Positions 7,507-64,000 of a stretch of 64,000 nucleotides of DNA are shown here, piece after piece. This stretch comes from a virus (Duplodnaviria > Caudoviricetes). A program made the translations under genes and the position numbers. Location: IMG/VR virus record IMGVR_UViG_3300028833_005988, positions 16,004-80,003 of that record. One strand, 5' to 3'. The notes beneath the pieces were generated by a model. The model was not told the origin of the DNA. It did no database searches and was given only the letters and a program-made list of their open reading frames with translations. Positions within the stretch are counted from its first letter, which is position 1; every line of letters begins with the position of its first letter.

Positions 7507-8163
7507 ATCGGGTAGGAGGGGGTGGCTAACCCCCGTCCTCCCACATCAGCGCTCATGCGGGCCCGCAAGCGGCGGTTCAGTTGCTGGCACTTGGCAGCAT
7601 GTTTGATCGGAAATCGTGACGTTCAGCGATTCTGCCATACCTTCGGTCGCCCACCTATCCTCTGGCAGATATCCTCTATCGAGCAACTGCTTTCAACACG
7701 TCCGGTTCCTGACATACTGTATTATCAGCAACCGCCAGGCCCTTCCCTCCATCGTCTTTCACCGACTTCTCTGGTACTATGGCCCAGACTGACTTCTGGA
7801 TGTTCAGCCATGCCTCGTTTCCTTGTGCATGGGTTACTCCGCGTGACCGGAGCTTATCATCCAGACCTCCCCGGTTAAGGTGCAACAACCTTCATTCCAT
7901 GCAGCCGCCGCATTTACGTGACAGAATCCGGGTAGTATTGGACTTCGGCTTGTGTTGCAGTCTCGTCCGTTCTGCCCCGCCTTTTATGAAGTTTCTGTTC
8001 GTTGGCTCGGAACTTTGCCCGTCAGGGTTGATCATTTCCCCCTGGCATCCGGCTTCCTTCAGATTCCACCTCGCGATGGACACCCTTGCCTTCGGCTAAC
8101 GCTTCCTACTACCAAGCGTGTAGTGGACTTTCACCACCAAGTTGTTGCCCATGCCGGGCGTAC
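7507..8163 (-). mobile_element. ORF-less group II intron (IIC-like), 657 nt
   Basis: 5' end GTACGCCCGGCATGGG; domain V/VI-like 3' end ...GCGGGCCCGCATGAGCG...GGAGGACGGGGGTTAGCCACCCCCTCCTACCCGAT; no RT ORF inside. Confidence 0.8.
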
Positions 8164-8211: not shown

Positions 8212-8817
8212 GTGTTCCGGGCATGGTGCAATTCTCGCGGGTGAAAGCCTCGCCACCGGTGGCTACCGCCAAGTGTAGCGAACCGCAAGCCGTTATCAGC
8301 AACGTTAACTGGGGAGGAAGCGGTGTAGCAAAATCGACGAGTCTACGGAAAGAAACTGGATACAAGGCCAAACGGCGGGCAAGGTTGCCACAGAAGCCGA
8401 AGCCTGAAAGGTAGCTGTAAAACCGAAACAGTAAATCCAGAGGTTGTGCGGTGAAAGAATTGTGGCTTATCCCGGGAGGCCTAGTCAGCGAGGTGAAAAC
8501 CGAATGTGAAAAAAGCGAGTGACCGGGAGTCAACTGAGGCCATGGTAGGGACTTTGTCCTGAAGATCCTATTGTCGTGGTATTGCAGATCACTGTAAGTA
8601 AGTCAATGATTGCCCGAACATGCAGCGAATGCCAAGGCAAAGGGATCGTAACCCGGAGTGGCAGGAGAGGCGGAGATGCTTTCTTCATTGATTTTGTAAA
8701 CAGAATGCGAAGCAACAGGCAGAAAATGTCTGGTATTACACAACGATGTAGCGCCGCATACCTGACCGGTATGTACGGTGCAATAGGAGGGAGGGGATTA
8801 ACCCCTCTCTACCCTAT
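8212..8817 (+). mobile_element. ORF-less group II intron (IIC-like), 606 nt
   Basis: 5' end GTGTTCCGGGCATGG...GTGAAAGCC; domain V/VI-like 3' end GCGCCGCATACCTGACCGGTATGTACGGTGC...GGGAGGGGATTAACCCCTCTCTACCCTAT. Confidence 0.75.
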
Positions 8818-15881: not shown

Positions 15882-16406
15882 TTAGCTGTCGGCTTGCGAA
15901 TCAAGCAGAACACGAATACGCCTTTTTGCCTTAAACCAATACTTGCGAACAGTACCTGGAGCAATATTCATTATTGTCGCAATGCTGTTTGTTGAATGCA
16001 TCTCAAATTTCAGCTTTAGGACTTGTGCTTCTCGCGGCGGCAAGAAAGAGAGACCCAACATTATGATTGAACTGTCAATTCCCGGGCTGTTCCAATCATA
16101 TTCATCGCCAATTTGTGATAGATATAAGGATCTCATCTCATTTTGGTGTTCGTAACATGAATATCTTTTTTGGCGACGTATGTAGTCTATGGAGCAATTA
16201 TGAACACATCGCATAATATATGCTTTGATAGCATAGTCCTCCAATTTTTGTAATGTGTCCATGTGCCTGATAATTGAAAGCCAACAATCGCTAGCAACAT
16301 CTTCGGCGTCCTGTGAATTCCGAACATAGCGATATGCAGCGCTGACCATTAGCGGATGAAAGTTGGAGAATATATTTATTATTAATCTATTCACTTCATC
16401 ATTCAT
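15882..16406 (-). CDS. ECF sigma factor
   Basis: DAEDVASD, region 4 LPPREAQVL...IATIMNIAPGTV. Confidence 0.85.
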   Translation of the reverse strand: MNDEVNRLIINIFSNFHPLMVSAAYRYVRNSQDAEDVASDCWLSIIRHMDTLQKLEDYAIKAYIMRCVHNCSIDYIRRQKRYSCYEHQNEMRSLYLSQIGDEYDWNSPGIDSSIIMLGLSFLPPREAQVLKLKFEMHSTNSIATIMNIAPGTVRKYWFKAKRRIRVLLDSQADS

Positions 16407-23693: not shown

Positions 23694-24932
23694 GTGGATT
23701 TTTTTGACGATAAGCTGAACCTGTTCTTCGACAAGGAAATGCTTCAGCGGACGGTCAACGCCTGCGTGGATAAGGGCATCGACCTGGCGGAAATCCGCTG
23801 GTTCACGCAGCCGGAACACCGCATCACTCTGGCCAAGCAAATGCTTGCGGGACAATACCATATCGCCCCGCCGCACATCATTCAGATTCCCAAGCGGGAT
23901 TCCACGGAAATGCGGAAAGTGTACTGCAACGAAGCCATGGATCGCTTCATCTGCGCACAGATTGGCAAGGTATATGAGCGGATGTACCATGACCGGATTC
24001 ATCCCTGCTGTGTTTCCTATCAGCACGGTATCGGCGTGGGAAAGATAGTGCGGGAAATATCCGCCTTTCTCGCTTCCCATCCCGGCATGAAAGGCCGGAA
24101 GTACGATATTCACCACTATTTCGATGAAATCAGCGAGGAAACACGGGATCAGGGATTGCGGGAACTGGACTCCGGTTCCTGCATTGACCGGGTCGTGTGG
24201 GAATACCTGCATGACGATCAGGTGATTGATGAGAATGGCGAATTGCAGCATGTTTATAAAGGCATCGCCCAGGGCTTTGCTGTCAGTCCCTTCCTAGCGA
24301 ATTACCTGCTCCGTGATGTGGATGAAGCCATCAGCAAGCTGGACGTTCTCTATTACCGGTATTCCGATGACATTCTGATCCTGGGCAGCGACGTGGAGAA
24401 AGCTGAAGCCATCCTCTTCTCAAAGCTGGCGGAGAAAGGGCTGACCATCAACCCCAAAAAGGTGACGGACATTGACGCGGATACCGCGTTCACCTTTCTG
24501 GGCTTCAAAATCCGTGGCGCGGAGATCACCTTTTCCAAAGATACGATCGACCGGCTGAAAAAGAGCATCCGCAGCCTGACCAAAACCAGGAAAGGCCAGC
24601 CCTTGAAAAGTGAAGCCGTTCTGCGGAAAGCGATCCGACAGATCAACCATGATCTGTATATGGCCTATTTGCTCAACGACCGGGAATTTGGCTGGGCGGA
24701 GTATATGTTCGGTACGGTCAATGTTCTGGAGAATGTGCGTATGCTGGATTTCTACATCAAAGATCATCTGCGGCACCTGTACACCGGAAAGTGGAATTCC
24801 TATGGGAACTACCAGAAGGTGCCCAATGATATGCTGCGGCGGTGCGGATATATCAGCATGGTGCATCTGTACAAGCTCTACAAAATCTCCAAATCCCTAT
24901 ACAGAAATGAGGTGAGGATGCAGTGCGCATGA
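23694..24932 (+). CDS. Reverse transcriptase (412 aa, no endonuclease or Cas1 fusion)
   Basis: IPKRD...DRFI, DIHHYFD, GIAQGFAVSPFLANYLL, YYRYSDDILI, GLTINPKK, FTFLGF. Confidence 0.95.
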   Translation: MDFFDDKLNLFFDKEMLQRTVNACVDKGIDLAEIRWFTQPEHRITLAKQMLAGQYHIAPPHIIQIPKRDSTEMRKVYCNEAMDRFICAQIGKVYERMYHDRIHPCCVSYQHGIGVGKIVREISAFLASHPGMKGRKYDIHHYFDEISEETRDQGLRELDSGSCIDRVVWEYLHDDQVIDENGELQHVYKGIAQGFAVSPFLANYLLRDVDEAISKLDVLYYRYSDDILILGSDVEKAEAILFSKLAEKGLTINPKKVTDIDADTAFTFLGFKIRGAEITFSKDTIDRLKKSIRSLTKTRKGQPLKSEAVLRKAIRQINHDLYMAYLLNDREFGWAEYMFGTVNVLENVRMLDFYIKDHLRHLYTGKWNSYGNYQKVPNDMLRRCGYISMVHLYKLYKISKSLYRNEVRMQCA

Positions 24933-26790
24933 AGTGACGTGCAAAATCAGTCTGGCCGATCAGGACGGCAGGGTTAAACCTCAAATCCGTCTTCTTCATC
25001 ACGCAGGCCAATTCCGCGAAGCGCTGCATGGCCAACGTGCCCAGAAGACCGATCATCGTAAAGCCGTACAGTCAAGACCCATCCCTGAATCCTGATCACT
25101 CCCTTTTATGGCGCTGCCAGCGCTTTGAGCAGCAGACAGGCACAATCACCGCGAGATACCGCCTCCTGAGGCCCATCTCATCTCGAAGCGGATGAGATGC
25201 CCCTCCTGAGGAGGTATCCCTTGATCCTAAAGTCATGAAGTAATGGCCCGGCTTGGAAGCTGCTCTAATAAATGAAGAAGGTAACGCCAGTTATCCCGGC
25301 GCAGGGAAACAGCGGTACGTCCGTACACCAATCATGCACGAGCTCCGGATCCTTGTCGTTCGACACGTCGTCAACGCGACGTTTCCTCCGGTCTCTCTTT
25401 CAGGATCCGGAGCTCATTCTTCTATCGTAAAGCTTCTGAAGCATTGCGCAAAAGGAACCGCTGCTGTTTTATGCATCCGGTACAGGAATGCCGCATCATG
25501 TCCGTATCCTTCACACAGCCGGCTTTCGATCCGCTGAGGCAGTGGATCGCGCAGACCGGCTTTACATCGTAAACCCATGAAGAAATGTACAAAGCGGAAA
25601 CGGTGCGGAAATCGCCCGGCGCAGGGCGGCAATGCAATATCCGCAAACATCAGCTTCTGAAATTCCGATCGACATCGCCAGCTCTGGTGCCCAGAACCTG
25701 ATCGGAAGCCTCCCTTTGGTTCTGGGCACATTCGCGGCGATGTCATCCGAATTCAGAACATCGTAAACACTTTCAGTTATGCGCAAGGCGGATGCGTATT
25801 GCCAGAATCACTCCAGCGCAGGAGCAGCAATGGAGCCGCTGATTTTCAATGAGCTCTTCTGCAGTACGTCGTCTTCTTCAGGGTTTCGAGCTGCCGCTCG
25901 GAGACCTCTCTTACAGCTCGAACCCCATGAAGCAACGACGTACTGCAGAAGAGTAATATCGTAAACCCTTGCAGTCATGCGCCAAACAGCGGAAAAATTG
26001 CTTCATTATATAGCGCAGGCGCGTGCGTATGCGACGCTATGCCCTTTTTTCAGCATGTCAGTGCGAGTCATTCGCTTCTGCTCAGTGCGCTCTGCGGAGG
26101 CCGCGTCACACACTGAGCTTTGCTCCGATTCACACTGCCCGCATCGTAAAACTGTGAAGAAAACGCGAACAGAGGGCCCGGCGTTGCTGTTCTTTTTTTC
26201 TCCGGCACAGGAGAATGCCGCCATGTCCGCGCCATCAGGCATCCTGCCTTCTGAAGCGCGCGTCACATGAGGAGGTGCCCAGGCCATCGCGAAGGAAACC
26301 TTCTTATAGTCTGGAGCACCTCCCAGTATCGCGCGCTCAGAAGGCAGGCTACATCGTAAACCTCTGAAGAAACGTGCAAGGCGGAAACGGCGGCAGCATC
26401 CCATCCGTACAGATGGCTTTTCCCCAGTTTCGAGCTTTATGCGGCATTCGGAGGCGCAAGCGCCTCCTGCTGACCGACGCCTGTATGCCGGCATCGAGCG
26501 ACTGGGATGACGGGCATCCCAGTCACCATTTTCCGTCATACAGGCTCCATCAAGCTCGCAACATCGTAAAGAGATGCAGTTCTGTACCGTGCAGGCAGGT
26601 GGATATATCAGATACACGTTTGCACAGACGATTTTGACAGCCGATCCCATTTCTTCAGTTCGGCAGCCGCTCCGGCCGTCGGCAGGCGCCTTTCCATTCC
26701 GGACACCTTCATTCCAGGCGCCTCGCCGTCGGCCGGATTGGCTGCCTACATCGTAAAGCGGTTGCAGTTATGTGCCAATCGGGATGGCTG
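24926..26790 (+). repeat. RT-associated non-coding array of structured units
   Basis: ATCGTAAA at 25055, 25424, 25566, 25760, 25958, 26143, 26353, 26563, 26750 and ATCCTAAA at 25224, each followed by a TGAAG/TGCAG-like element; spacing 142-210 nt; long unit-specific hairpins. Confidence 0.85.
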
Positions 26791-33731: not shown

Positions 33732-34289
33732 TTAAAAATCCTGCTTTACGTTTGTTGATAATAATACTGATGCAAGACGAAAGTGCTTTTTTTTACTCAA
33801 TGGTCGACATTCAACAATTTGTACATAATCACCAATCCTTGCAACCTCATTTTCATCATGTACAAGATAGTTTTTTGATCTTTTAATTTGTTTATTATAC
33901 TTTGGATGGGTAAGGTAGTATCCGTTTTTCACCTTTATTGTCTTCTCCCCTGAAATATTTACAACAAGTCCTTCAAGCACTTTTCTCTTGTTTCTAATCT
34001 TTAAAGTAAACTCTGCTCCTGGAAGAGGAAGAGTGGGTACATGAATTATCACTGAATGAAAGGCAAGATAATCAATCCATGTTTTTACCATGCGATCCAG
34101 TTCATAATATTCATTTTGAGAAAGCCTATCATATTGATTATAAAAACTTACTGTGTTAAAAAAATTAGCTATTTCGGGAACCATTATCTTTTTTCTATCC
34201 TCGATGTTAAGGCTGACAAGCGATTTAGCCTTATGTAATAGACGTCTATGAATAAGGCTAAAATCTTTAAAACCCATAAAGCACCTCAC
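33732..34289 (-). CDS. rpsQ: Ribosomal protein uS17-like domain fused to a ~95-aa unknown N-terminal domain
   Basis: C-terminal RKVLEGLVV...KTIKV...HPKYNKQIKRSKNYLVHDENEVARIGDYVQIVECRPLSKKKHFRL; lies outside any ribosomal operon. Confidence 0.8.
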   Translation of the reverse strand: MRCFMGFKDFSLIHRRLLHKAKSLVSLNIEDRKKIMVPEIANFFNTVSFYNQYDRLSQNEYYELDRMVKTWIDYLAFHSVIIHVPTLPLPGAEFTLKIRNKRKVLEGLVVNISGEKTIKVKNGYYLTHPKYNKQIKRSKNYLVHDENEVARIGDYVQIVECRPLSKKKHFRLASVLLSTNVKQDF

Positions 34290-48019: not shown

Positions 48020-48478
48020 TTACCACAGTTCGATACTGCCGGTTTCTTCACCTTTGACCCAGTAGGCTTTGTTCTCGTCTACACGGATATAAATCTTATC
48101 CGCAGCCCCGATCTTGGCGATGATTTCTTCCGGTGTAATGGTTCCACCAAGTGGAGACTGGATAATGATTTCGGTTTTCGGCGATTGCGCGGGTGCGTTT
48201 TTTTCAGCCTTTGCCTTGCTTGTGCGCTTTGCTTTGGTCTTGGATTCCGCAGGCGCGTCAGCCTTTGGCGCCTTTGCCTTCTTTGCAGGCTTGAGAGCCA
48301 AATCCACGTTATAGACTTCCTTGATCTTTCCCAATACCTTTTCGCTCGGATTCACCCGGCCCGCTTCATAGGCGGTCACGGAGGCTGTGCTTACGCCAAT
48401 CGTTTTTGCGAAGGCAGCTTGAGACAGTTTCTGTGCGGTACGAAGTTCTTTAATTGTCGGAATCTTCTTCGGCATGAA
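48020..48478 (-). CDS. XRE-family repressor, divergent from the replication operon
   Basis: IKELRTAQKLSQAAFAKTIGVSTASVTAYEAG; Lys/Ala-rich linker. Confidence 0.88.
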   Translation of the reverse strand, partial: FMPKKIPTIKELRTAQKLSQAAFAKTIGVSTASVTAYEAGRVNPSEKVLGKIKEVYNVDLALKPAKKAKAPKADAPAESKTKAKRTSKAKAEKNAPAQSPKTEIIIQSPLGGTITPEEIIAKIGAADKIYIRVDENKAYWVKGEETGSIELW

Positions 48479-48796
48479 TGTCATCCTCCCTTTATTCTTT
48501 TGACTTCATTATACATAAAGCATTTAAGAATTACAAGGAAAATGTATTTCTTAATCAGTTGTTTGAGGGGGTATGGCATTTTTTTCGTATTGGATACATG
48601 AATAGCATAGTATACAGACGCTCTCACTGTGAAAAAAGTTCCCCATTGTTTCGTCCTTTCCGTCTCGTTATAATAATGCGCATCCGGCACAAAGAACGAG
48701 TGTTACTCACAAAATTATTTCTATTGGAGGAGCAAGTTTTGGCCAAAATGGTATCTCTTATATAATGAAAACCAAAATGAAAGGGAGGAATCGACA

Positions 48797-49831
48797 GTGG
48801 CTATTCAAATAGTCAAAGCAAAACGGCAGTTGGCGCGCCTCAAGATTGGAGTGGCTGGTAGTTCCGGCAGTGGAAAAACATAGAGCACGCTGCTCATGGG
48901 TTTCGGTTAGATTCAGGCAGTACATCCTAGCATCTCCAATGAAGCGGCTTGGGAGAAAATCTGCGTTATCGACACGGAAAACGGTTCTGGTAGCCTGTAT
49001 GTTGGCACTGTGGTAAGCAGTACCCGTATCGGGGAGTACCTGACCATCGCTCTGGACGCTCCGTTCAGCGCGGCCCGATATCTAGAGGCTATTGAAGCGG
49101 CAGAGAATGCTGGGGTGGAATTTTTGATTATTGATTCCCTGTCACACGCCTGGTCCGGTGAGGGCGGTCTGCTGGATATGCAAGCGAACATCGCCAAACG
49201 CAGCGGCAACGGCTATACCGCCTGGCGGGATGTAACTCCGCTGCATAATAAGCTGGTGGACAAGATCCTGCAATGTCCCATGCACGTGGCGGCCACCCTG
49301 CGCACCAAGACGGAATATGTGATCGAGGACAACGGACAGGGTAAAAAAGCACCCCGCAAGGTGGGTATGGCCCCCATTTTCAGAGAAGGGCTAGAATATG
49401 AGTTCAGCGTGTTCTTTGAACTGGCTCAGGATCATTCCGCGGCAGCCACGAAGGATCGTACCGGCCTGTTTGATGGTCAATACTTCGTGATCACCCCAGA
49501 CACTGGCGCGAAAATCGCGGGCTGGCTGGGCGACGCGGAAAAGAACGCAGCCGCATCGGCAGCGGAAAGGCCGCAGGTGAAGCAACAAAGCCTGGAGCCT
49601 TCTGAACCGTCTCCTGAACCGCCTTCTTCGGATGGAGAGGATACCCAGACCCTGGCTGAAAAGGTAGACATGGTGATGAAAGCCTGCTGCACCGATATTA
49701 CTCAGGAGGAAAGAGAGAAGATCGCCCAGCGGATACGGGCAATTACCGGAGGTACAGCAAACTATCGGGCGATTACTGACAAAAGGATTCTTCAAGCAAT
49801 CTACGATGAATTCAAGGAGGAAACAGTATGA
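48797..49831 (+). CDS. AAA_24-like phage ATPase; 2 in-frame TAG (48881, 48908)
   Basis: Walker A GSSGSGKT*S, VIDTENGS, IIDSLSHAW; frame continuous through both TAGs. Confidence 0.88.
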
Positions 49832-50193
49832 GTGTAAATAAGCTGACCGCAGTTGGACGATTGACGGCAGATCCTGTTTTATCCCAATTCGGTGATGCTT
49901 CCTGCGCGACCTTTACATAGGCATCGGATACACGCACCAAGGATGTGAACGGAGATAATATCACAAATTTCTATCGTTGCAATACCTGGCGCAGAATGTC
50001 TGAAGTAGCCATGCAGTATTTACATAAGGGTGACAAAATTACTGTGGTCGGCGACTTGACCATTCGGCAGTATAAAGATAAAAACGGTATGGATCGAACT
50101 GCTGTACAGATCAATGTCACAGATTTAGAATTGCCAGCCCATAAAACACAGACTACCAATGGCAGTTCTCAAGAAGATGATTTGCCTATTTAA
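49828..50193 (+). CDS. ssb: Single-stranded DNA-binding protein; 1 in-frame TAG (49918)
   Basis: VGRLTADP, ATFT*A, YLHKGDKITVVGDL, acidic tail EDDLPI. Confidence 0.92.
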
Positions 50194-50206
50194 GGGGGAC
50201 AAACAG

Positions 50207-50761
50207 ATGAAGCTCACTGCAGAACAAGAAACTCAATTCTTGAATGAGCATGAGAAAAAGATCTGTGATTTTGTCAATCGTTACCAGCGAAAAGCCGGAA
50301 AAAGGTATCCTGACAATACAGAAGATCTTCTACAGGAGGCCAGATAGGCGCTGTTGCTTCTGCTGCGAAATGCAGATAGTTTAGCGGAAGCAGAGCATTA
50401 CTACATCCATGTGACGCATGCTTTATATGAGTATGTGCGCAGAATGGCGGCAGTTAAAATCCCACAAAAGAAGTTTAAGATGGAAATCCGCAATATATTT
50501 CTTTTCTCCCTGGATGTATTCGAATTTGATGCAACATCGTCTTCTTTTGAAGATATGATTATCGGCAATATAGATTATGAACGCTTTTTGAGTTGCTTAT
50601 TACCTTTGGACGCAAAGATGCTGTCTATGAGGATGAAAGGTAGTTCATAGAAAAAAATTGCCAATGCTGTGGGATTATGCGAAAGTCAGGTATGTCGCCG
50701 TATTCATCGTTTAGGCAATCAGTATCGCTGCTTTATGGAAGGCTGTTGCTGTGCAGGCTGA
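50207..50761 (+). CDS. Sigma-70-like factor; 2 in-frame TAG (50345, 50648)
   Basis: EDLLQEAR*ALL (region 2); KGSS*KKIANAVGLCESQV (region 4 HTH). Confidence 0.75.
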
Positions 50762-52541
50762 CATCCTTCGGTTTGCCGCCGTGCACTTGGCTCCTTACCG
50801 GGTGCGCGGGGATGAACTCATCCCGGATTACTGCCCCTTCTGTCACGGCGGCGACAGCGGCGACCGATACACCTTCGCCCTGAACCTGACGGACGGCGTG
50901 TATGTGTGCAAACGGGGCGGATGCGGCGTCAAAGGCCGGTATGAAGAACTGGCAGCCCATTTTGGCGAGTGGGCGGAGTTTCTCCGCCCCGCCGCCTCCG
51001 CCAAAAGGCAGTTCATTCTGCCGGAAGTGGAAATAAAGCCCCTGACCACGGAAATAATTCAGTATTTTGAAAAGCGGAGAATCACCAAAGAAACCTTGGA
51101 CGCGTTTCACATCGGCGCGGACGAAAAAGGAAACATCGTTTTCCCCTTCTTCCGGGACAGCACATAGGAATATGTGAAATACCGGGCGCCGCGCACACCC
51201 CAGCCCAAGGAGAAAAAGGAATGGCAATGTTCCAACACACGCCCCATCCTGTTCGGGATGGATCTATGTTCCTTTTCCCACCCCCTGATCATCACAGAAG
51301 GCCAGATCGACACGCTCTCTCTTTATGAAGCAGGCGTCTGTAATGCCGTGTCCGTTCCAAGCGGCTGCACCAATCTGGATTGGATCGACCATTGCTGGGA
51401 CTGGCTGGAGAAGTTCCAAACGATCATTCTGTTCGGGGACAGCGATGAACCGGGCAAAAAAATGGTGCGTGAGGTGGTTCGGCGGCTGGATGAAGCACGG
51501 TGTATGGTGGTAGAGGAATACCCAGACAAGCCGGACGGCACACCCTGCAAGGACGCCAACGAAATCCTGTTCTATTATGGGCCGGAAACGCTTCAGGAGA
51601 CCTTGGACGCCGCTCAGCCGGTGCCTGTCAAGGGAATCATTCAGTAGTCGGATGTGGTTCCTTACGACCCTACCACCGTTCCACGAATCAAAACCATGAT
51701 CCCGGCGCTGGATGAATAGATCGGCGGATAGGCGGAAGGGGCAATGACGGTGTTCACCGGCAAGCCCGGCCAGGGCAAGTCAACGGTCACGGGACAGCTG
51801 CTTCTGGCTGCTATCGAGCAGGGCTATTCCGTCTGCGCTTACAGTGGCGAGCTGACCAAGGAAAAATTTTAGGAGTGGATTAGTCTCCAGGCAGCAGGTT
51901 CGGAGTATATCGGCCTTCGCTATGATCCCGTGCGCGGCATCAAAATCCCGACCGTGCCGTATGCCGTACAAGAGCGATAGACGGATTACTATCGGGATAA
52001 GTTTTATCTATTCGACAACCAGGAAATCTTTGAGGTCAACCAATCGGAAAGCATCCTGAAGGTTTTCCAGATGGCGGCGCGGAGATACGGCTGCAAGCTG
52101 TTCCTGGCGGATAACCTGATGACCGCCCTGTCCGATTCCGACGAGGAAACCAAGGCCCAGGGCAAGTTTGCCAACGCGCTCAAAAAGTTCGCCACCCGGT
52201 ATCATGTGCATGTGCTGCTGGTGGCCCATCCCCGCAAGGTGAAGCAGGGAGAAAAGCTTGGCCAGGACGACATCGGCGGCAGCAGCGCCACCATCCGTTA
52301 GGCGGACAGCGCCATCGTGGTGGAGCGGCCCAACCTGCGGGTGCTGAAAAACCGGGAGGGCGGGATATGCAGGCTGATCGAGTGCTGCTACTGCCCGGAC
52401 AGTCGCAGGATCTATCAGGCAGACAAGGGCGATAAGAACCGTTTTTCCTGGAATAAGGACGGTATTGTGCCGCCGAATCCCCGGGCGGACAGTTTGCCGG
52501 AGTATTCAGTACAGATGGCAGAGGTGATACAACCGTTTTAA
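50751..52541 (+). CDS. T7 gp4/Twinkle-like primase-helicase; 7 in-frame TAG (51165, 51645, 51717, 51729, 51870, 51978, 52299)
   Basis: Zn finger CPFC...CKRGGC; TOPRIM ITEGQIDTLS, DSDEPG; Walker A GKPGQGKST; ADNLM, VAHPRK, DIGGS. Confidence 0.9.
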
Positions 52542-53326
52542 TGGAGGGAAGCAAGTGCATCATTCCAAATGATATGAAATGGTCGTTCAGCAAATAGCAG
52601 TTGTTTTCTCAATGCCCCTTGGCTTTCAAGCTGCAGTATATCGACCATGTTTCCCAGGAGCAGAACAGCTACGCGGAGTACGGTACGCATTGCCACAGCC
52701 TGCTGGAGCGCTGGGCCAAAGGGGAACTCTTGTCCTTTGAACTGGCGGACAGGTATGAAGCGGAGTACGACGAAGCGGTCAGGCATTACTTCCCGCCCTT
52801 TCCCCAGGGCCTGGCCGGAAAATACTTTGAGGAAGGGAAGCAGTATTTTCTGTCCTTCGACGGCTTCGGAGAAAACATGGAAATCCTGTCCGTGGAGGAA
52901 AAGTTTGAACTGGATATCCGGGGAAATCCATTTGTGGGCATCGCTGATCTGGTGCTGCGGGACAAGCAGGATGGCGGCATTATCGTCATCGACCACAAAT
53001 CCAAGTCCATGCAGTCTATGAAAAAGGAACTGTTCGCCAATACTCGGCAATTGTACACCTATGCCGCGTATGTGAAGGAACGGTTCGGAGAATACCCGGC
53101 TATGCTGCGGTTCAATATGTTCCGCTACGGCACCTTCATCGATGAGCCCTTTTCCATGGAGCGATACCAGGAAACCATGGACTGGATCGATACGACCATC
53201 CAGGCCATCAAGAACGAAAAGGATTGGCGTGTGTCCACCTCCGGCTATTTCTGCCGCTTCATCTGCTCCACCCGCCTGCATTGTCCTGTGGGGGAAGAAA
53301 TCATTCATTCCGAAATAAAGGAGTAA
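52541..53326 (+). CDS. PD-(D/E)XK nuclease; 1 in-frame TAG (52595)
   Basis: WSFSK*QLFSQCP, GTHCHSLLE, GIADL, VIDHKS, QLYTYA, CRFICS. Confidence 0.88.
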
Positions 53327-53332
53327 TCCGCT

Positions 53333-56300
53333 ATGACGCTTTAGGAAAAGGGTATTCCTTATGTGAATTATCACCGGCATTCCTGTTACAGCAACGTCAT
53401 GCTGACAGACAGCGTAGTCACCAATGAAGACTACGCCAAGCGGGCGGTAGAATTGGGGCATACCATTCTTTCCTCCTGCGAGCACGGCACCCAAGGCAAC
53501 TACTGGCAATGCTCCGAACTGGCAAAGAAGTACGATCTGCACTGGCGGTATGTGAGCGAAGCCTATTTTGTAAAGGACAGGCGTGAAAAGGATAACGCCA
53601 ACTGCCATATTATCCTGGCTGCCAAGACGAGAAAGGGCATCGGCGATCTGAATTTCGCCCTGTCCGAAGCCAACATTAGCGGATATTACTATCGGCCCCG
53701 GGTCGATCTGGAATTACTGCTGTCCCTGGATTCGCAGGACGTTTTTGTGACCACGGCCTGCATCGCCGGGGTGTTCAAATACGGCTGGGAGGAGGCGGAA
53801 CGCCTGATCCTCCGCTTCGCAAAGCACTTTCGGGGCAGCTTCATGTAGGAAGTACAGTATCACGACACGGATAAGCAGCGGGAGGTCAACCAATTCCTGC
53901 TGGGCTTGTACAGAAAGCACGGGATTCCCCTCATCATGGGAACCGACAGCCATTATATCCATCCGCGGGACGCAGAACTTCGGCAGCAGCGGTTGGAAGC
54001 CAACCACATTCTGTATGAGGACGAAGGCGGCTGGTATATGGATTATCCCTCCGGAGCAGAAGCGTTTCAGCGCTTTCAGCGGCAGGGCGTTCTTTCCGAC
54101 GCGCAAATCCGGGAGGCCATGGAGAATACCTGCATCTTTGAATCCTTTGAGGATGTGGAATTCGACAAGAGCAAAAAGCTGCCCACCATCTATCCTGAGC
54201 TGACACAGGAGGAACGGAACCATAAGTATCTCGATCTGGTGAACGCCGCCTTTGAGCAGCAGACTGCTGGCATGACGGAGGAAGAAAAAAGTGTCCGTGC
54301 GGAAGGCGTGAAATACGAAACGGATGTGGTCACCTCCACCGGCATGAGCGATTATTTCCTGTTGGATCACGAGCTGGTGTGCCGCGCCGTAAAAAAAGGC
54401 GGCATCATCACCAAAACGGGACGCGGCAGCGCGCCCAGCTACTATACCAACTCCCTGCTGGGCCTGTCCTCCATTGACCGCTTCGCCATCCCTGTGGAAA
54501 TGTTCCCGGATCGGTTCATTTCGGCGGACAGAATCGTATCCGGCAGCCTGCCGGACATCGACATGAACGTAGCCAACCGGGAAGCCTTTGAGGAAGCCCA
54601 GGCGGAAGTACTGGGCGAATGGAGAAGCGCGCCTATGGTGGCTTTCGGTACCCTGAAACGGCTCTCCGCCTGGAAAATGTACTGCCGGGCCTCCAATCTT
54701 TCCTTCGATGTCGCCAACAGCATCGGGGATAAACTGAAAGCCTATGAAACAGCGGTCAGATACGCGGAGGACGGTGAGGAAATTGCGCTTTCCGACTACA
54801 TCCCAGAAGAATATCGGGAATAGGTCGCCGCCAGCGAGCAGTACATGGGTGTGATCGATTCCATTTCCCCACATCCCTGCGCCTATCTGCTCTGCCGGGA
54901 AGATATTCGTCGGGAAATCGGGATCATCCGCATCAACAGCAAGGGAGCCAAGAAAAAGACTGTCTACGCCGCCTTTATCGACGGCGCAACGGCGGAACAG
55001 TTCGGATATCTAAAGAATGACCTGCTCCTGGTGGAAGTTGTTAAAACCAACCATGAGGCATTTAAGCGCATTGGGACGGAGCAGCCGGATGTGAACGAGC
55101 TTTTGCGGCTCACAGCCCAGGATAAGGAGACGTGGCGTATGTACGCGGAAGGATTGACCATGGGGCTGAATCAGGTGGAACAGCCGAAAACACGGGAAAA
55201 GGTGATGCAGTACAAACCCAGGAACATCACCGAGCTGGCGTCCTTTGTGGCAGCGGTACGCCCTGCGTTCAAATCCATGCTGCCCATCTTTCTGGCCCGG
55301 AGGCATTTTGACTATGGCATCCCCGCTTTTGACGCTTTGATCCAAACAAGAGAGATGTCGTCCAGCTTCATTCTGTTCCAGGAGCAACTGATGAAAACGC
55401 TTCAGCATGCCGGGTTTTCATCCCCTGAATCCTACGCGGCCATCAAGGCGATTGGGAAAAAACATCCGGAGAAGGTACTGCCGCTGAAGCAGCGTTTTCT
55501 GGAAAAGTTCTCAGAGAAAAGTGATCCTGATGCGGCAGAAAAGGTCTGGAAGATCATTGAAGACGCGACTTCGTATGGGTTTAACAGTTCTCATGCTGTC
55601 TGCGTCGCTCTGGACAGTCTGTACGGCGCTTGGCTGAAAGCTCATCATCCTTTGGAATACTACACCACCCTTCTCACCGGCTATGCCGCCAAGGGAGACA
55701 AAGACCGCATCTCTCTTGCCAAGGAAGAAATGCGGAAGGGCTTCGGCATCCGCGTGGTCCCCTGCAAATTCCGGCAGGACAATCGGGACTTCTATATTGA
55801 CTACGAAGAACGAACGATCTCTGACGCATAGACGTCGGTAAAGCACATAAGCCGCAAGGCTGCGGAAGCGCTCTACGCTATGCGGGACGGATTCTATGCC
55901 TGCTTTACCGATCTGCTGTATGATATGGAGCTTCATCCTGCCTTGGATTCCCAGGTGGTCGAAATCCTGATCCGGCTGGACTATTTTCGGGAGTTCGGTT
56001 CCAACGGAAAGCTATAGAAGTTATTAAGGGAGTTCCGGGAAGGGGAAGCCCACTTTTCCAAAACCCATATTCCCAGGACCCAGGAGGCGCGGCTGCGCGT
56101 TCTTCGCGGGATCGAGAGAAGTCTGCCGGAGGAAACCATTCCGCCTTATGAGCAGGCGCGTTTTGAAATCGACCACTGCGGTACGCCGCTCACCTTGTTT
56201 CCGGCATTAAAGTTTGAATACGCCGTTATAGATGTGGATGATCGGTACAGCCCCAAGCTGAAGCTGTGCAGCCTCTCCACTGGACATACGGGCGTGATGA

Positions 56301-56461
56301 AGCTGAAAAAGGCGCTGTTTCAGCAAAAACCCATTGAAGAAGGCGCCATCCTCCGCCTGATCGCCTGGAACCGAAAACCGGCGTATCAGTTTCTCGACGG
56401 GAAAGCCAAGCCAAGATCCGACATGTTCGACCTGTGGATCACCGATTATGAACTGATCTGA
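53333..56461 (+). CDS. dnaE: DNA polymerase III alpha subunit; 5 in-frame TAG (53342, 53846, 54821, 55829, 56015)
   Basis: PHP YHRHS, CEHG, GTDSHY; GRGSA, PDIDM, HPCAY, LKNDLL, YGFNSSHA. Start 53333 has RBS AAGGAG (alternative GTG 53363). Confidence 0.92.
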
Positions 56462-56497
56462 TGATCCGTCCGGCCAGCGTTTTTCTGGCCGGTACAG

Positions 56498-56582
56498 GGG
56501 AGCATGGCGGAACTGGCAGACGCGGAGGTCTCTAAAACCTTTGCTTTACGGCGTGCGGGTTCAAATCCCGCTGCTCCCACCA
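56498..56582 (+). tRNA. tRNA-Leu-type body with CUA anticodon (reads UAG)
   Basis: Acceptor GGGAGCA/TGCTCCC, discriminator A and encoded CCA; D-arm GCGGAACTGGCAGACGC; anticodon arm GAGGT-CTCTAAA-ACCTT (CTA at 56532-56534); extended variable arm; T-arm GCGGG-TTCAAAT-CCCGC. Confidence 0.93.
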
Positions 56583-56623
56583 TCGCGCTTCATGCGCAGA
56601 AAAGCTTGTAAAGGAGGCGGATC

Positions 56624-56938
56624 ATGAATACGATTCCCTTACGATTCATCCATGCCGGTTTCGGCCATGTGGTATGCGCCAATCGGGTTTCCATGGTACT
56701 CAATCCCCAAACCGCCAGCGCCCGGCGATAGATTAGGGCCGCAAAAGAGGCAAAACCCTCCAGATTTGTGGATATGACCTTTGGCCGAGCCACAAAGAGC
56801 GTCTTACTGTTGGACGACGGAGCCGTGATTGGTTGCGGATTGACCTACCGCACCATAATGTCGCGGCTGAACGGCGATGCCCCATTGGAAGCGGAAGCAG
56901 AACCGATCCTGGGCACAGAAGCGGAGAATGCGGAATGA
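56624..56938 (+). CDS. RemA/DUF370-like protein; 1 in-frame TAG (56729)
   Basis: GFGHVVCANRV...SARR*IRAAKE...DMTFGRATKSVLLLDDGAVI. Confidence 0.75.
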
Positions 56939-57573
56939 AAATCATTCAGCAGTCCGCCCGTATCCTCACCCCGGAGGATGGAATGCAGGTGCTGCGGCAG
57001 ATTGAGCAGGCTGGCCGCAACTGTTACCGTTCTGAAAGAAAGATCACAGAGGACAGCGCGCCGCGTTTTGTGGCCGCACTGTTGAAACGAGGCCACCTTT
57101 CGCCTGTGGAGTTTGCCGATATGAGCGTGGAGTAGGTCACTTCCCGGGATGTGATGGCGGAACTCACCCGGCATCGATTGGCCAGCTTCTGCATTGAGAG
57201 CCAGCGGTATGTAAACATGAATGGAGAAATCGCCTTCATCCAGCCGATATTTTATCGGGAAGGTTCTTGGGCCTCCGGGCTCTGGTGGAAGTGCATGAAG
57301 GATGCAGAAAAAATCTACCATGATATGCTGGCACACGGCATCAAGCCCGAGGACGCCAGGAAGGTATAGCCCAATTCCACCGCTGTCCGCATCATCATGA
57401 AGGCCAACCTGCGGGAGTGGCTGCACATCTTCACGCTCCGAACCGATCCGGCAGCTTATCCTGAAATGCGGACATAGATGGCGCTACTGCTGCGGCAGGC
57501 CAGGGAAAGGATCCCCTTGATATTTGACGGAATAACAATCCCGGACGGAAAGGACGAAAACCATGAGAATTGA
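56935..57573 (+). CDS. thyX: Flavin-dependent thymidylate synthase; 3 in-frame TAG (57133, 57367, 57475)
   Basis: GHLSPVEF, ELTRHRLASFCIESQRY (RHRx7SxR), ARKV*PN, NLREWLH, EMR. Confidence 0.92.
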
Positions 57574-59440
57574 TAAGTATACCGATCATAACCGGCATTA
57601 GAGCTTCATTGACCGCTACGGTAGGGCGTCTAACGCTGCAACCAGCAGCGAAACGGATCCCAATGCCAATGTGGAAAGCAAGAACATCGCCACCATGGAA
57701 ACGGAAATCTATAAGGCGGACGCCATCGCCATCAATCGTCTGGGCATGTACCGGAAACTGCAGGAGATGTACGGCACCAACACCGCGGAAGAATATTTGC
57801 GGCAGCTGGAAGAGCATGAAATCTACCGGCATGACGAAGTGGGCATTTTGGGCAAACCCTACTGTGCCAGCGTGACGCTCTATCCCTTCCTTTTCTATGG
57901 AAACACCTGCATCGGCGGCACCAGCGAAGCGCCCAAGAATCTCTCTTCCTTCTGCGGCGCGTTCATCAACCTGGTATTCGCTTAGGCCAGCCAGTTCTGC
58001 GGGGCCATTTCCACGCCGGAGTTCCTCTGCTACATGGATTATTTCATCCGCAAAGAGTATGGCGACGACTATTACCAACGTTCAGATGAGGTCGTAGATT
58101 TATCCACTCGCCACCGCACCCTTGATAAGGTGATTACCGACGCCTTTGAGCAGGTGGTGTACTCCATCAATCAGCCTGCCGCCGCCCGCGGGAATCAGTC
58201 CTGCTTCTGGAATATCGCCTATTTTGACCAGCCGTACTTCCATGGGATGTTTGAAGATTTTGTGTTCCCGGACGGTACGAAGATGCGCTGGGACTCTGTC
58301 TCCTGGCTGCAAAAGCGTTTCATGCGCTGGTTCAATCAGGAACGGAAGCGCAAGCTGCTGACTTTCCCGGTGGAAACGGTGAACCTGCTGGACAACGGCG
58401 AGGATTTCGTAGATCAGGAATGGGCGGACTTTGTAGCAAAGATGTGGGCGGAGGGACACAGCTTTTTCGTGTACCGCTCTGATTCGGTGGATTCGTTAGC
58501 ATCCTGCTGTCGTCTTAGAAATGAAATGCAGGATAACACCTTCTCCTACACGTTAGGCGCCGGCGGAGTCGCCACAGGCAGCAAATGCGTCATGTCCATC
58601 AACGTGAACCGCCTAGTGCAAAATGCCGTTTGGGACAATGGCTTGGAGGATGTGCGTGAAGCGATGTCGGAGATGGTGGAGAAGGTTCATAGGTATTTGC
58701 TGGCTTTCAATGCGATCCTGAAGGAACGTCAGGCCGCCGGGTTGCTGCCGGTCTACGACGCGGGTTTCGTCTCCCCGGAAAAACAGTACCTGACCATTGG
58801 TGTGAATGGCTTTATCGAAGGCGCTGAAGCGCTGGGGATCGAGATCGACGCGGACAATCCACAGTATATTGCCTATGCCGAAGCGGTGTTGCAGCCGATC
58901 TACGAAGCAAACCGAAAGGACCGGCAGGAGGGGATCATGTGGAACACGGAAATGGTACCCGCGGAATCCTTGGGCGTAAAGAATGCTGCTTGGGATAAGG
59001 CGGACAAGCTGTTTGTTCCGCGAGACTGCTACAACTGTTATTTCTTCCGGGTAGAGGATCCCAAGGTCAATGTGCTGGATAAATTAAAGCTTCACGGACG
59101 CGCCTTTACCAAGTACCTGGACGGCGGCTCGGCCTGCCACATCAATCTGGATGAGCATTTGACCAAGGAACAGTACGTCCTGCTGCTGAAAGCCGCTGTT
59201 CGCACCGGCTGTAATTACCTGACCTTCAACATTCCCAACACGCTCTGCAAAAAGTGCGGGTATATCAGCAAGCACCGCTTGGATGAATGCCCCAAATGCC
59301 ACAGCCGGAGCCTGGATTACGCCACGCGGGTCATTGGGTATCTGAAGCTGGTGTCCCGGTTTGCGGAAGCGAGGCAGGAGGAAGAACATCAGCGGTACTA
59401 CGCAAGCAGCCTGGAGGGCGCCCATGGGCAAGGTGATTAA
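57563..59440 (+). CDS. nrdD: Anaerobic ribonucleoside-triphosphate reductase; 2 in-frame TAG (57599, 57983)
   Basis: PYCASVT, EMVPAESLG, YLDGGSACH, CKKC...CPKC, glycyl-radical loop TRVIGYL. Confidence 0.93.
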
Positions 59441-59621
59441 GAACCCGGATGAGGTCTTTTATAAGAACCTCAAGCGGCGCATCAAGCAAAACAACGGCTA
59501 TTGCCCCAACAAGCCGCGCCACGTCCCGGAAAACAAATGCCCGTGTCAGGCGTTCCGGGAGGGGAAGAGCTGCGACTGCGGGCAGTACATCGAATAGCCG
59601 GAGGATGTGACGGTATGCTGA
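59424..59621 (+). CDS. Ferredoxin-thioredoxin reductase catalytic subunit-like small protein (ends 59597 if TAG is a stop)
   Basis: GYCP...KCPC...CDCG motif. Confidence 0.6.
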
Positions 59622-59860
59622 TCTGTACGGAATGCGGGCGGACATTTGAACGGCCCCAGGAGGCTGTAGAACAGCATGGGCTGGACACGCCGCCCTACGA
59701 AAAAATCAGCATGTGTCCCTTCTGCGGCGGAGTGAGTCTGCGCAACGCATATCCCTGCTCCATTTGCGGCGGTTGGATCACCGGCAGCCACATCATCACG
59801 CTGGACGGGCAGCGCATCTGCGATGGCTGCTATATCCGCTATGAGGGGCCGGATGACTGA
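59615..59860 (+). CDS. Cys-rich Zn-finger hypothetical protein
   Basis: Four CxxC pairs (CTEC, CPFC, CSIC, CDGC). Confidence 0.65.
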   Translation: MLICTECGRTFERPQEAVEQHGLDTPPYEKISMCPFCGGVSLRNAYPCSICGGWITGSHIITLDGQRICDGCYIRYEGPDD

Positions 59861-60341
59861 AACGCCCCTGCGGTACATGGAATACGCCGTGACGCTGGCG
59901 GAGGCGCCGAAGGAGGTCAGCCTGACCATCGCTGTTTCCAACTGCGTCTTCCGCTGCTCCGGCTGCCATTCGCCCTATTTGTGGGAGGACAAGGGAGAAC
60001 TGCTGCTGCCGGCCCTGCCGGGACTGATTCGCAGGTATAAGGGGCTTATCTCCTGCGTGTGCTTCATGGGCGAAGGCCAGAATCCATCGGAATAGCGGCA
60101 GGCGCTGACGACAGTGCGGGAACACGGCTTGAAAACCTGCCTGTACAGCGGCTGCGACAGCATTCAGCCGTTTGTGCCGCTGCTTTCGCTGCTGGATTAC
60201 CTGAAAATCGGTCACTATGATGAAAAGATGGGCGGGCTGGACAGCGGGACGACAAATCAGCGGTTTTACCGCGTGGAAAATGGACAACTGATCGACGAAA
60301 CCGAGCAATTTCAGAGGAGGAAAGAGGAACATGACGCCTGA
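59853..60341 (+). CDS. nrdG: Anaerobic RNR activating enzyme; 1 in-frame TAG (60093)
   Basis: CVFRCSGCHS radical-SAM motif, FMGE, LYSG, LKIGHY, TTNQRFY. Confidence 0.9.
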
Positions 60342-60978
60342 CGAATACAAAGCGAAATACGGAGACACGGTCATCATGGGTATCGAGGCCAAATGGGTGG
60401 ACGGGCTATAGGTGGAGGGATACAATCCCAAAATCCTGGAGCCGGACGAGGATGGAAACGAGTACTGTGCGCTGCTGGAAGTGATTGAACAGCATTTGAT
60501 CAGTATGCCGCGCTGGAAAGCGGAAACCGATCTCACCTTCAAGCAGGTCATTCCCTATGTGATCGTGGAGCACCGTCCCACCGGACACATTTACATGACC
60601 ACCCGGATCGGCGGGGATGATCGGCTGAAAGGGCAGCACAGCATTGGCCTTGGCGGGCACATGGATGAGGACGAAAGGATTCTGGATACCCTTTACCGGG
60701 AACTGGAAGAAGAAGTGGGACTTCACCGGGACGACATCGCCGATATTTCGCTCTGCGGTTTTCTGTCCAGCACCATGACGGAGGTGGACAGCGTTCATTT
60801 AGGCCTGATCTACCATATCACCACGAACCGGGAGGATATTTCCTGTCTGGAAAAAGACAAGCTGATGGGCGACTGGTTCACGGTGGAGCAGTTACAGGAA
60901 GCCAGAAAAGCGGGCCACATGGAATCCTGGAGTACGATTTGCTTTGACAGCCTGCTGAGAGGGGAGGCGACCGAATAA
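60331..60978 (+). CDS. NUDIX-family phosphoesterase; 1 in-frame TAG (60409)
   Basis: KQVIPY, SIGLGGHM, RELEEEVG, VHLGL, MESWS. Confidence 0.85.
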
Positions 60979-61298
60979 TGCCCATCATCACCGGCGTTCA
61001 GCCCGATGCGCCTACCGTGGTCAACGAAAGAGGCGGCGCACAGTCCGCCACACCCTATGCCTTTCACTTCCTGCCGCCCAACGCCATGTTTGCCGCGGCG
61101 GAAACGGCCAAATACGGCGCGGAAAAGTATCACGAGTCTCTTCAGGATCGGAACTACAAGAAAATCCCGACCGAGGAACATGTGAACCACGCTATCCAGC
61201 ACCTGTACGCTTATTTGGCCGGAGATCAGACAGACGATCATCTGGCTCACGCCATCCTGCGGGCCATGTTCGCCTATGAAACGGCGTATGAGCAATAA
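60978..61298 (+). CDS. dATP/dGTP diphosphohydrolase-like (DUF5664) protein
   Basis: KYGAEKY...NY...HAIQHL...DHLAHA. Confidence 0.75.
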   Translation: MPIITGVQPDAPTVVNERGGAQSATPYAFHFLPPNAMFAAAETAKYGAEKYHESLQDRNYKKIPTEEHVNHAIQHLYAYLAGDQTDDHLAHAILRAMFAYETAYEQ

Positions 61299-61794
61299 AT
61301 TGCAAAAATCATCAAAATCTCTCCGCCTCCTCTGCGCCGATCTCTCCTTGCGCTGTCCCGGTTTTGCCGTCCTGCGGTATGAGAGCGGGAAAATCACCGT
61401 GGAAAGGCTGTGCCACCTGAACCATCGCGAGCAGAATTGCTGTCATGGCGAAATTTTGGCGGCTATCTATGATATGATCACGGAGCTTTCCGCTGATGTG
61501 GCCGTATTCGTGCGGGAAAAGGGCTTCTCCCGATTCCCGCACGAAACCCAGGTTCTTTTCAAGGTGGTAGGTATCGTTGACCTGGCCGCGTGGCGGCAGT
61601 GCAAAACGCAGTTTGAGGAAATCGCGCCGACCACCGTGAAAAAACTGCTGACCGGATCGGGGAAAGCCAGCAAGGAGGAGGTTGCCGCCGCATAGGAGCA
61701 GTACGTGGGAAAACAGGATTACGCCACCAATGACGAGAGCGACGCTGTTGCCGTGGGGGTGGCGTGGCTACGGTCACATAGATATATTGAATGA
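61288..61794 (+). CDS. ruvC: RuvC-like Holliday junction resolvase; 1 in-frame TAG (61693)
   Basis: ADLS, VRE, VKKLLTGSGKASKEEV; catalytic DESDAVAV lies after the TAG. Confidence 0.88.
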
Positions 61795-62028: not shown

Positions 62029-63606
62029 ATGATGAAACGAGTATTATGCCTGTACAGGGTATCAACAATCGGGCAGGTTGACCATGACGATATTCCCATG
62101 CAGCGGATCGCGTGCAGGGAGTTTATCGCGCAGCACCCTGACTGGGAATTGGTTGATGAGGTGTCTGAGAAGGGTGTATCCGGCTACAAGACCAAAACTG
62201 CGGATCGGGATGCACTGGCTCAAATTAAGGCAAAAGCGTTGGCCAAAAAGTTTGATATCCTGCTTGTGTTCATGTTTGACCGTATTGGACGGCGTGATGA
62301 CGAAACGCCATTCGTGGTTCAATGGTTTGTAGAAAACGGAATTGAGGTCTGGAGCACCAAAGAGGGCGAGCAACGTTTTGATACCCATGTGGATAAGCTG
62401 CTGAACTATATTCGCTTCTGGCAGGCATCCGGTGAAAGTGAAAAGACCTCTCTGAGAATACGTACCAAGCATTTGCAAATGATACAGGAAGGCTTATACA
62501 GAGGCGGATTGGTTCCCTATGGGTATCGGCTTGAACATCAGGGACGGGTGAACAAGAAGAATCAACCGGTACGCGACCTGGTAATTGATGAAAAAGAAAG
62601 CCTTATTGTACAGGAAGTATTCCACAAAATTACTTCTGATGGTTGGGGAACGAATAGAATCGCCAACTGGCTGAATGCGCGAGGTATCCCTACAAAACAT
62701 GGGGACAGTTTTTGGCGGGGCACCTCGGTTCGTGCGGTAATACGGAATCCGATTTATACCGGCAGAATTCGCTTTGGTGATGATCTGTCCGAACCTTTTG
62801 AGCACTTGCGTTTGATTGATGACGCCTTATTTGAACAGTGCGACAGGTTAGTGAGAGAAAAAGCGCCACGGATGTCCAGTAAACGCACCTCTGCCCTCCG
62901 CAGTACAAGCAGAGGCTTATTGACTGGTGTCTTGTATTGCGGTACCTGTGGGGAAAGAATGTGCTTTAACCATAACAGGACGATACACTCTCTTGCAGAT
63001 GGAACAAAAAAATGCTATGAAAGAGATGTCTACCGTTGCTATCGGAAGATCAGTGACCGCAAAGGATGTACAGGGCGTTCCACGTATTCCGTTGAACGGA
63101 TCGAAGGGGATGTGCTGGATGCCATAAGGACTTTTTTTGAAAGAATCAAGTCCGCACCGACGCAGGTGATGCTACATTCTGCAGGCAGCAGAGCAAAAAC
63201 CATTAACGAGGAGGCACTTGCGAGGGCAGAGGCTGCGTTAAAAAAAGCGCAGTCTGAAATGACCGCGCTTGAAGAAGAAGCCGTTAAAGCGCTGACGGGC
63301 GAAAGCAAAATGGACGTTACTTTTATCAACACTCTGATTCCCAAACGCCGCGCCAACCTGGAAAAAGCAATGGCCGAAGTGGAGAGTATTCGAACGGAAA
63401 TCGAGAATGAAGCAAAGACGGATGCAATGCACAAACGGGAGCTTCAGATGATCCTAACCTGGGCAGAAACGTTTGAAACGGCACCGTTGGATACGAAACG
63501 TACTATCATCTCAGCAATGATCGAAAGGATCATTGTAAATAACGATTATTCTCTGGATATTCAGTTCAGAATGAGCATGAATCAGTTTATGGGAAAGGCT
63601 GCATAG
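62029..63606 (+). CDS. Large serine recombinase (integrase)
   Basis: YRVST catalytic Ser, DRIGR, recombinase domain GLVPYGY, Zn ribbon CGTC...YRC, coiled coil; ends in TAG. Confidence 0.95.
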   Translation: MMKRVLCLYRVSTIGQVDHDDIPMQRIACREFIAQHPDWELVDEVSEKGVSGYKTKTADRDALAQIKAKALAKKFDILLVFMFDRIGRRDDETPFVVQWFVENGIEVWSTKEGEQRFDTHVDKLLNYIRFWQASGESEKTSLRIRTKHLQMIQEGLYRGGLVPYGYRLEHQGRVNKKNQPVRDLVIDEKESLIVQEVFHKITSDGWGTNRIANWLNARGIPTKHGDSFWRGTSVRAVIRNPIYTGRIRFGDDLSEPFEHLRLIDDALFEQCDRLVREKAPRMSSKRTSALRSTSRGLLTGVLYCGTCGERMCFNHNRTIHSLADGTKKCYERDVYRCYRKISDRKGCTGRSTYSVERIEGDVLDAIRTFFERIKSAPTQVMLHSAGSRAKTINEEALARAEAALKKAQSEMTALEEEAVKALTGESKMDVTFINTLIPKRRANLEKAMAEVESIRTEIENEAKTDAMHKRELQMILTWAETFETAPLDTKRTIISAMIERIIVNNDYSLDIQFRMSMNQFMGKAA

Positions 63607-64000
63607 CAACAATAGAGACAATAGGAATAAATCGGTTTATGCTGCAGACAAAGTATGGTAGTGTCACCTGCACAAATGTGTTTTTTCAGGCAAGTGCAAA
63701 ATTCCTCTCTTTCAGCCGGTTTTGAATCATCATTTGGAGCAAGCTGAAAAAAGAGCGCAAAAGAAGCCGGAGCCTCTTCCGCAGGTTCATGTAAATCACA
63801 ATGGAATGGATCATCGCTTCGCTGGTTTCCTTCAGCTTGGTAACAATGCAATCCAGTGAATAGCGGCGTTTTCCAACGCCGAAGTGCCTTTCGATTTCTC
63901 CCCGTTCTCCGGATTCCAGCCATTCCAGTTTCTTGTGTTTCCTGGCTTCTTCCGGATCTGTAAAGGGCTTCCCGAGCTTGGGACCGTTCAGATGGATTCC

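Follow-up and report, generated by a model that had tools for sequence, protein, structure and literature searches.

A leucine-bodied amber tRNA gene and the probable reading of TAG as leucine in a temperate phage of standard-code Clostridia

Introduction

How are full-length proteins made from phage genes that are interrupted by TAG codons in a host that stops at UAG, and which amino acid is inserted there? These questions are raised by a 64,000-nt stretch of a Caudoviricetes provirus record (IMG/VR IMGVR_UViG_3300028833_005988, positions 16,004 to 80,003; hereafter the window), in which a tRNA gene with a CUA anticodon lies within an operon that is rich in in-frame TAGs. In phages, Borges et al. 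(10.1101/2021.08.26.457843) observed only the reassignment of TAG to Gln and of TGA to Trp, and tables 15 and 4 were used by Cook et al. and in the phAss-1 paper (PMC10607447). A 2026 survey of bacterial and archaeal codes is silent on phages, and no report of TAG=Leu in a phage or bacterium was found in the literature searched, subscription papers being outside its reach. UAG=Leu is known from algal and chytrid mitochondria (NCBI tables 16/22; PMC6551751, PMC6131824) and from phyllopharyngean ciliates (PMC11687900).

A preliminary description of the window, made from its letters, proposed that the tRNA has leucine identity and could be charged by host leucyl-tRNA synthetase (LeuRS). Here, comparative analysis of the tRNA, the proteins and related prophages indicates that the tRNA very probably delivers Leu at TAG, so that TAG would mean Leu in a temperate phage whose Clostridia hosts use the standard code.

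Results

A conserved amber tRNA gene

A single tRNA was called by ARAGORN in the window, at 56498–56582 on the plus strand with anticodon CTA, and it was the sole tRNA of the whole 80,003-base record; low-stringency matches elsewhere in the record were noise. The program labelled it 'Pyl', as it does any CUA tRNA. The segment also matched Rfam RF00005 (56.8 bits, E 1.4e-9). Read from the sequence, this 85-nt class II tRNA with a leucine body consists of an acceptor stem (56498–56504/56572–56578), a CUA anticodon (56532–56534), a variable region of 13 nt (56542–56554) and an encoded CCA (56580–56582). The bases relevant to identity are A15 (56512), G18G19 (56515–56516), A20a (56518), U48 (56554) and A73 (56579).

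The minimum-energy fold of the lone sequence was not a cloverleaf, so the structure was tested comparatively. Related elements were retrieved with a DnaE query from viral contigs, rumen and gut metagenomes, and Clostridia metagenome-assembled genomes (MAGs). The CUA tRNA was found directly 3' of dnaE in relatives with DnaE identity from 93% down to 65%, and in one relative it was located about 14 kb from dnaE, still directly before remA. Among nine distinct copies from related prophages, 99.5% of cells were paired, both bases had changed in 18 of the 23 stem pairs, each of the five stems showed compensatory changes and the anticodon loop was invariant; none of 500 shuffles reached this level, and slid controls paired at 41–57%. 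Covariation of such strength is evidence of selection on the function of the tRNA. Since the same tRNA recurs after dnaE and/or before remA with compensatory changes, its presence is not a matter of chance, and the cloverleaf is accepted because of the Rfam match and the covariation. Thus, 56498–56582 was confirmed as a real tRNA gene, and ARAGORN, RF00005 and covariation agree with the full cloverleaf, CUA anticodon, A73, extended variable arm and encoded CCA that had been described.

Wherever the region was covered in a TAG-dense relative, the tRNA was there with its invariant CUA loop; the one exception is a record that is 41% complete. In four distant relatives where TAG is sparse (L045–L048), no tRNA lay within 10 kb of dnaE, the neighbourhood that was searched. 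A strict tRNA pattern gave no match in viral contigs; a looser pattern found two viral and five metagenome copies. A related Leu-bodied CUA tRNA also occurs in L118 (484–566) and L121, which represent another element, one that lacks the linked dnaE-remA block.

The operon around the tRNA

The recoded replication operon starts with an AAA_24 ATPase gene (48797–49831, plus strand; TAG at codons 29 and 38), followed at 49828–53326 by genes for SSB (one TAG), a sigma-like product (two), a primase-helicase (seven) and a PD-(D/E)XK nuclease (one), all on the plus strand. The 1042-aa DnaE is encoded at 53333–56461 on the same strand, with TAG at codons 4, 172, 497, 833 and 895 and TGA as its end. Downstream of the tRNA (56624–61794, plus strand) are genes for RemA-like protein (one TAG), ThyX (three), NrdD (two), small ORFs, NrdG-like protein (one), NUDIX (one), a dGTP diphosphatase-like protein (none) and RuvC (one). 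Every relative with the tRNA at this place has a RemA-like gene (56624–56938 in the window) directly after it, in most cases with an in-frame TAG.

A GC-rich hairpin, CCGGCCAG/CTGGCCGG (56470–56477/56485–56492, plus strand; z −2.64), ends 5 nt before the tRNA, so that the described order of dnaE, hairpin and tRNA within the recoded operon was borne out. In close relatives its position is kept and its sequence changed, and hairpins flank the tRNA there. An intrinsic terminator was ruled out, as the hairpin has no U tract and was not listed by the terminator scan; because no U tract follows it, a processing or stability element is more likely.

A sigma70-like site, TTGGCC-16-TATAAT (48739–48766, plus strand), is a candidate promoter of the replication operon, and a divergent sigma70-like site (48536–48508, minus strand) faces an HTH_3 (XRE-type) gene without TAG, a candidate repressor (48020–48484, minus strand). 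Both are consensus matches from a scan that returned fewer sites than expected by chance. This weak scan detected no promoter consensus just upstream of the tRNA.

TAG is confined to particular modules

The terminase and portal genes lie upstream of the window in the same record, where the virion module is also recoded. In 18 virion-module and 15 replication-module genes, TAG accounted for 68 of 776 Leu-plus-TAG codons, and all of these genes end with TAA or TGA. Their internal stops were exclusively TAG, with no TAA, TGA or frameshift. At least one TAG was present in 30 of the 33 genes (25.5 expected, p 0.013), and the first 50 codons contained 26 TAGs against 12.1 expected (0/20,000 shuffles). 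In distant relatives, the few TAGs were almost all near gene starts. This early position may reflect gating, or merely less waste on early termination.

The early-type block (20328–47080, plus strand) had no in-frame TAG in the 23 genes tested (5,846 codons, 560 Leu), which end with TAA or TGA and are readable in either code. The integrase, a serine recombinase (62029–63606, plus strand), has no internal TAG and uses TAG as its stop, and the relatives' whole integrases are likewise free of in-frame TAG. The integrase stop is followed within a few codons by two more in-frame TAGs before TAA/TGA (63604–63630), and read-through would add only 8 residues.

Of the 68 sense TAGs, 45 had A as the preceding base and none had C (86/708 for other Leu codons and 67/377 for TAY codons), and 54 were followed by a purine. 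Avoidance of CTAG accounts for the missing C, not clearly for A over G. This context bias may reflect selection for a read-through context.

TAG aligns with leucine

Genes of 48797–61794 yielded whole Pfam domains when read through TAG. At DnaE TAG columns, homologues had Leu in 95/95, 59/60, 55/58 and 54/102 sequences, and truncated database homologues stop just before Leu columns. Of the eight TAG columns of the terminase, six were Leu in 26/27, 24/27, 27/27, 26/27, 21/27 and 23/27 full-length homologues; the column of TAG 54 is mostly Ile, and TAG 460 lies in a variable loop. Opposite the window TAGs, eight relatives had Leu in 49%, TAG in 40% and Gln in 2%, the facing codons being mainly CTG, TTG, CTC and CTT. 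Profile decoding of 18 TAGs gave Leu +19.0, Met +9.0, Gln −3.3, Ser −8.7, Tyr −11.7 and Lys −12.7; of 61 sense codons, 60 were assigned correctly by the same procedure.

Since recoding also affects the close homologues, distant primases, solved ThyX structures and two cultured phages were added. In 124 distant primases, the fractions of Leu, hydrophobic residues and Gln at TAG columns were 0.30, 0.66 and 0.02, compared with 0.40, 0.75 and 0.01 at true Leu columns and 0.02, 0.09 and 0.22 at true Gln columns; the query was translated with TAG=L, which introduces a small bias. The column of primase TAG 380 is Lys/Arg in these homologues. The ThyX motif ARKVxPN, with x at the TAG, aligned with ARAVLPN of solved structures. 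At four DnaE TAGs of the window, the two cultured phages had L/L, L/I, I/I and Y/M, never Gln.

Gln does appear at some terminase TAG columns of homologues. In P0143, the one checked, it is TAG translated as Q by the database, and of its five TAGs four are aligned with columns where 21–24 of 26 others have Leu. In one relative (L011, the RUG14473 prophage), several TAGs face Gln, Glu or Pro of its relatives; either Leu is tolerated at these sites or decay has begun.

The tRNA body is of the leucine type

In E. coli, the leucine determinants are A73, A15:U48, G18G19, A20a and D/T tertiary contacts, and the anticodon is not one of them (PMC9976931); the latter bears out, for E. coli, the earlier statement that LeuRS charges independently of the anticodon. 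The window tRNA carries A73, A15:U48, G18G19, A20a and U54:A58, the whole listed set (PMC9976931), although these rules come from E. coli and Aquifex rather than Clostridia. A73, A15, G19, A20a and U48 are invariant in the nine copies, and G18 is changed to A in one relative (L049). The class II variable arm is like that of host tRNA-Leu, with one unpaired base before U48, and helix 4 is 100% paired. This layout is common to the phage tRNA and host tRNA-Leu, whereas host tRNA-Ser has G73 and G15:C48, tRNA-Tyr has G15:C48 and tRNA-Gln has a short arm. These features and, as an independent line, the alignment of TAG to Leu in proteins uphold the proposed leucine identity. CUA has U35 in place of the leucine anticodon base A35, so the tRNA is a Leu-bodied suppressor and not a canonical isoacceptor.

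The closest host tRNA was Leu(UAA) for eight of the nine copies and was tied with Leu(UAG) in the ninth. Identities of the window tRNA to host tRNAs were 0.68 for Leu(UAA), 0.65 for Trp, 0.58 for Ser, 0.54 for Gln and 0.53 for Tyr; with Trp so near Leu, overall identity is weak on its own. A standard-code sister with an ordinary tRNA-Leu at this site was sought among the relatives and not found, and relatives with an intact DnaE still carry a few in-frame TAGs elsewhere. An origin from Leu(UAA) thus rests on similarity.

Translation factors of phage and host

The record, a provirus by classification, has an estimated completeness of 69%, and a further phage translation factor may lie in the missing part. 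No release factor gene had been seen in the window, and none of the RF-1 family was found in the whole 80-kb record; likewise, the idea that no new synthetase is involved agrees with the lack of a class I (Ile/Leu/Met/Val) synthetase in the phage record. The relatives reside in Clostridia MAGs from goat, sheep and rumen samples. RF1 scored over the cut-off in all five host genomes of relatives, and host LeuRS was whole in four of them and in two pieces in the fifth. TAG ended 6 of 78 and 8 of 54 long ORFs in the host genomes of close relatives. One MAG has both the tRNA and host leuS on a single 251-kb contig. A phage without RF-1 or class I synthetase, in hosts with both RF1 and LeuRS, would rely on host LeuRS and compete with RF1.

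Discussion

The CUA tRNA might read TAG but carry Gln, Ser or Tyr in all or most cases, giving code 15 or ambiguous decoding. Gln has been assigned to all described TAG-recoded phages (10.1101/2021.08.26.457843), and it appears at the relevant columns of some terminase homologues. The Gln of P0143 is nevertheless a product of database translation, profile decoding disfavored all three amino acids, and A73, A15:U48 and the single unpaired base before U48 match host tRNA-Leu, not Ser, Tyr or Gln. The tRNA has G2-C71 instead of the E. coli anti-SerRS pair C2-G71, which is Ser-like, as is the long variable arm, and G1-C72, A73 and U35A36 overlap Tyr determinants; minor mischarging is thus possible. 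As the main outcome, we regard charging with Gln, Ser or Tyr as very unlikely. Still less credible is a pyrrolysine tRNA, as labelled by ARAGORN. Some Clostridia have pyrrolysine, and the anticodon would fit. The label was rejected, since neither the architecture of tRNA-Pyl nor PylRS was found: a length of 85 nt, a long variable arm and the G18G19/TPsiC motifs are unlike tRNA-Pyl, no PylS scored over the cut-off in the five incomplete host genomes of relatives, and Lys scored −12.7 at the TAG columns.

The TAGs could in principle be nonsense mutations of a decaying prophage, the tRNA being a functionless mutated Leu tRNA. The genes do look fragmented under table 11, and L011 has several TAGs at non-Leu columns. 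Decay would hardly produce internal stops that are always TAG in 33 genes; moreover, TAG positions are common to relatives at 72–93% identity, where they interchange with CTG, TTG, CTC and CTT, and CAG and TGG, from which nonsense TAGs usually arise, seldom occur opposite TAGs. By sequence comparison, the shared positions effectively refute decay, which we consider next to impossible. Alternatively, TAG=Leu may be real and the tRNA accessory, with read-through due to an unseen phage factor (an RF1 inhibitor or second tRNA) or a host near-cognate tRNA-Leu. The record is incomplete, the four distant relatives contain a few in-frame TAGs without a tRNA near dnaE, and up to eight TAGs per gene demand efficient read-through from a phage without a release factor. 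Against this, the tRNA accompanies TAG density in every covered relative bar the 41%-complete record, has stayed with remA in the relative where it has parted from dnaE, and shows the covariation expected from selection on its function. We therefore consider an accessory role very unlikely and retain the tRNA as the very probable carrier of Leu to TAG.

If the tRNA acts in this way, induction would lead to transcription of the replication operon, perhaps from the candidate promoter near 48739–48766 opposite the HTH gene. The tRNA would be cut out of the operon transcript, with its flanking hairpins and encoded CCA, and charged with Leu by host LeuRS ignoring the anticodon. It would then compete with host RF1 at UAG, and full-length DnaE, primase, ThyX, NrdD, terminase and portal would be produced only once it accumulates. 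In a lysogen, the tRNA would be silent and host UAG still a stop, while the TAG-free integrase, HTH protein and early block would still be translated. Since the first operon gene (codons 29 and 38) and DnaE (codon 4) need the tRNA, protein output should lag behind transcription. A tentative extension, which we think possible but somewhat doubtful, is that a self-contained translational switch hinges on the tRNA, which originates from the same operon that it serves, with early TAGs kept by selection in nearly every replication and virion gene. Such a switch would be an induction delay or commitment step and a lock against leaky lysogen expression, built from one tRNA and host LeuRS.

The element resembles the code 15 gut phages and prophages (crAss-like, Lak, Garnet and Topaz, 10.1101/2021.08.26.457843; phAss-1, PMC10607447) in having a phage CUA tRNA, a standard-code host and a host synthetase, with recoded structural genes and an integrase free of in-frame TAG. 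It differs in that TAG is read as Leu, the tRNA is class II, and the operon for DNA replication and nucleotide metabolism, with the tRNA inside, is recoded too. Neither alignment of TAG to Gln nor a tRNA-Gln body, the marks of code 15, was found in the window phage. Its features are those of phage suppressor-tRNA recoding: conserved in-frame TAGs in essential genes without other disruptions, standard-code hosts with RF1, and an integrase without in-frame TAG. The 'code change module' of Jade phages (tRNA, TrpRS and RF1) is likewise phage-borne machinery for code switching, but here no synthetase or release factor was found, the codon is TAG and not TGA, and the tRNA lies within recoded genes and not in a standard-code module. 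Eukaryotic UAG=Leu codes share the codon and amino acid but are organism- or organelle-wide, whereas here the reassignment would apply only to modules of a bacterial virus, in a host that still stops at UAG. The E. coli suppressor supP (su6) is leuX, a tRNA-Leu amber suppressor and laboratory mutant of a CAA tRNA. A Leu tRNA body with a CUA anticodon charged by LeuRS therefore works in bacteria; unlike supP, the phage tRNA is a conserved natural gene, closest to host Leu(UAA), and would serve dozens of fixed codons.

Reading TAG as Leu would add a third amino-acid outcome of stop-codon recoding in phages, where only Gln and Trp have been published, and it points to a simple route, in that the tRNA of a synthetase indifferent to the anticodon is easily turned into a suppressor. 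TAG=Leu escapes pipelines in which coding density decides between tables 11, 4 and 15, and the terminase of a relative in a public collection, with Gln at Leu columns, implies that some code-15 phages need re-decoding. Prophages in rumen Clostridia genomes may offer a handle on recoding as a regulator of the lysogeny-lysis decision, and with one 85-nt gene and a known host enzyme, TAG=Leu is directly testable.

Other features of the element

The integration module has been swapped: where the window has a serine recombinase, a 93%-identical relative (L003/L004/L010, right end) uses a tyrosine integrase, which adjoins a host tRNA-Pro. Group II intron D1-D4 matches (RF02001) lie back to back at 7881–8080 (minus strand, 118 bits) and 8293–8466 (plus strand, 88 bits), and a stand-alone reverse transcriptase (RVT_1) at 23694–24932 is followed by non-coding DNA at about 24987–26757. 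A 185-aa ORF at 33732–34289 (minus strand) matches ribosomal protein S17 in its C-terminal part (E 6.6e-26), which is odd in a recoded prophage.
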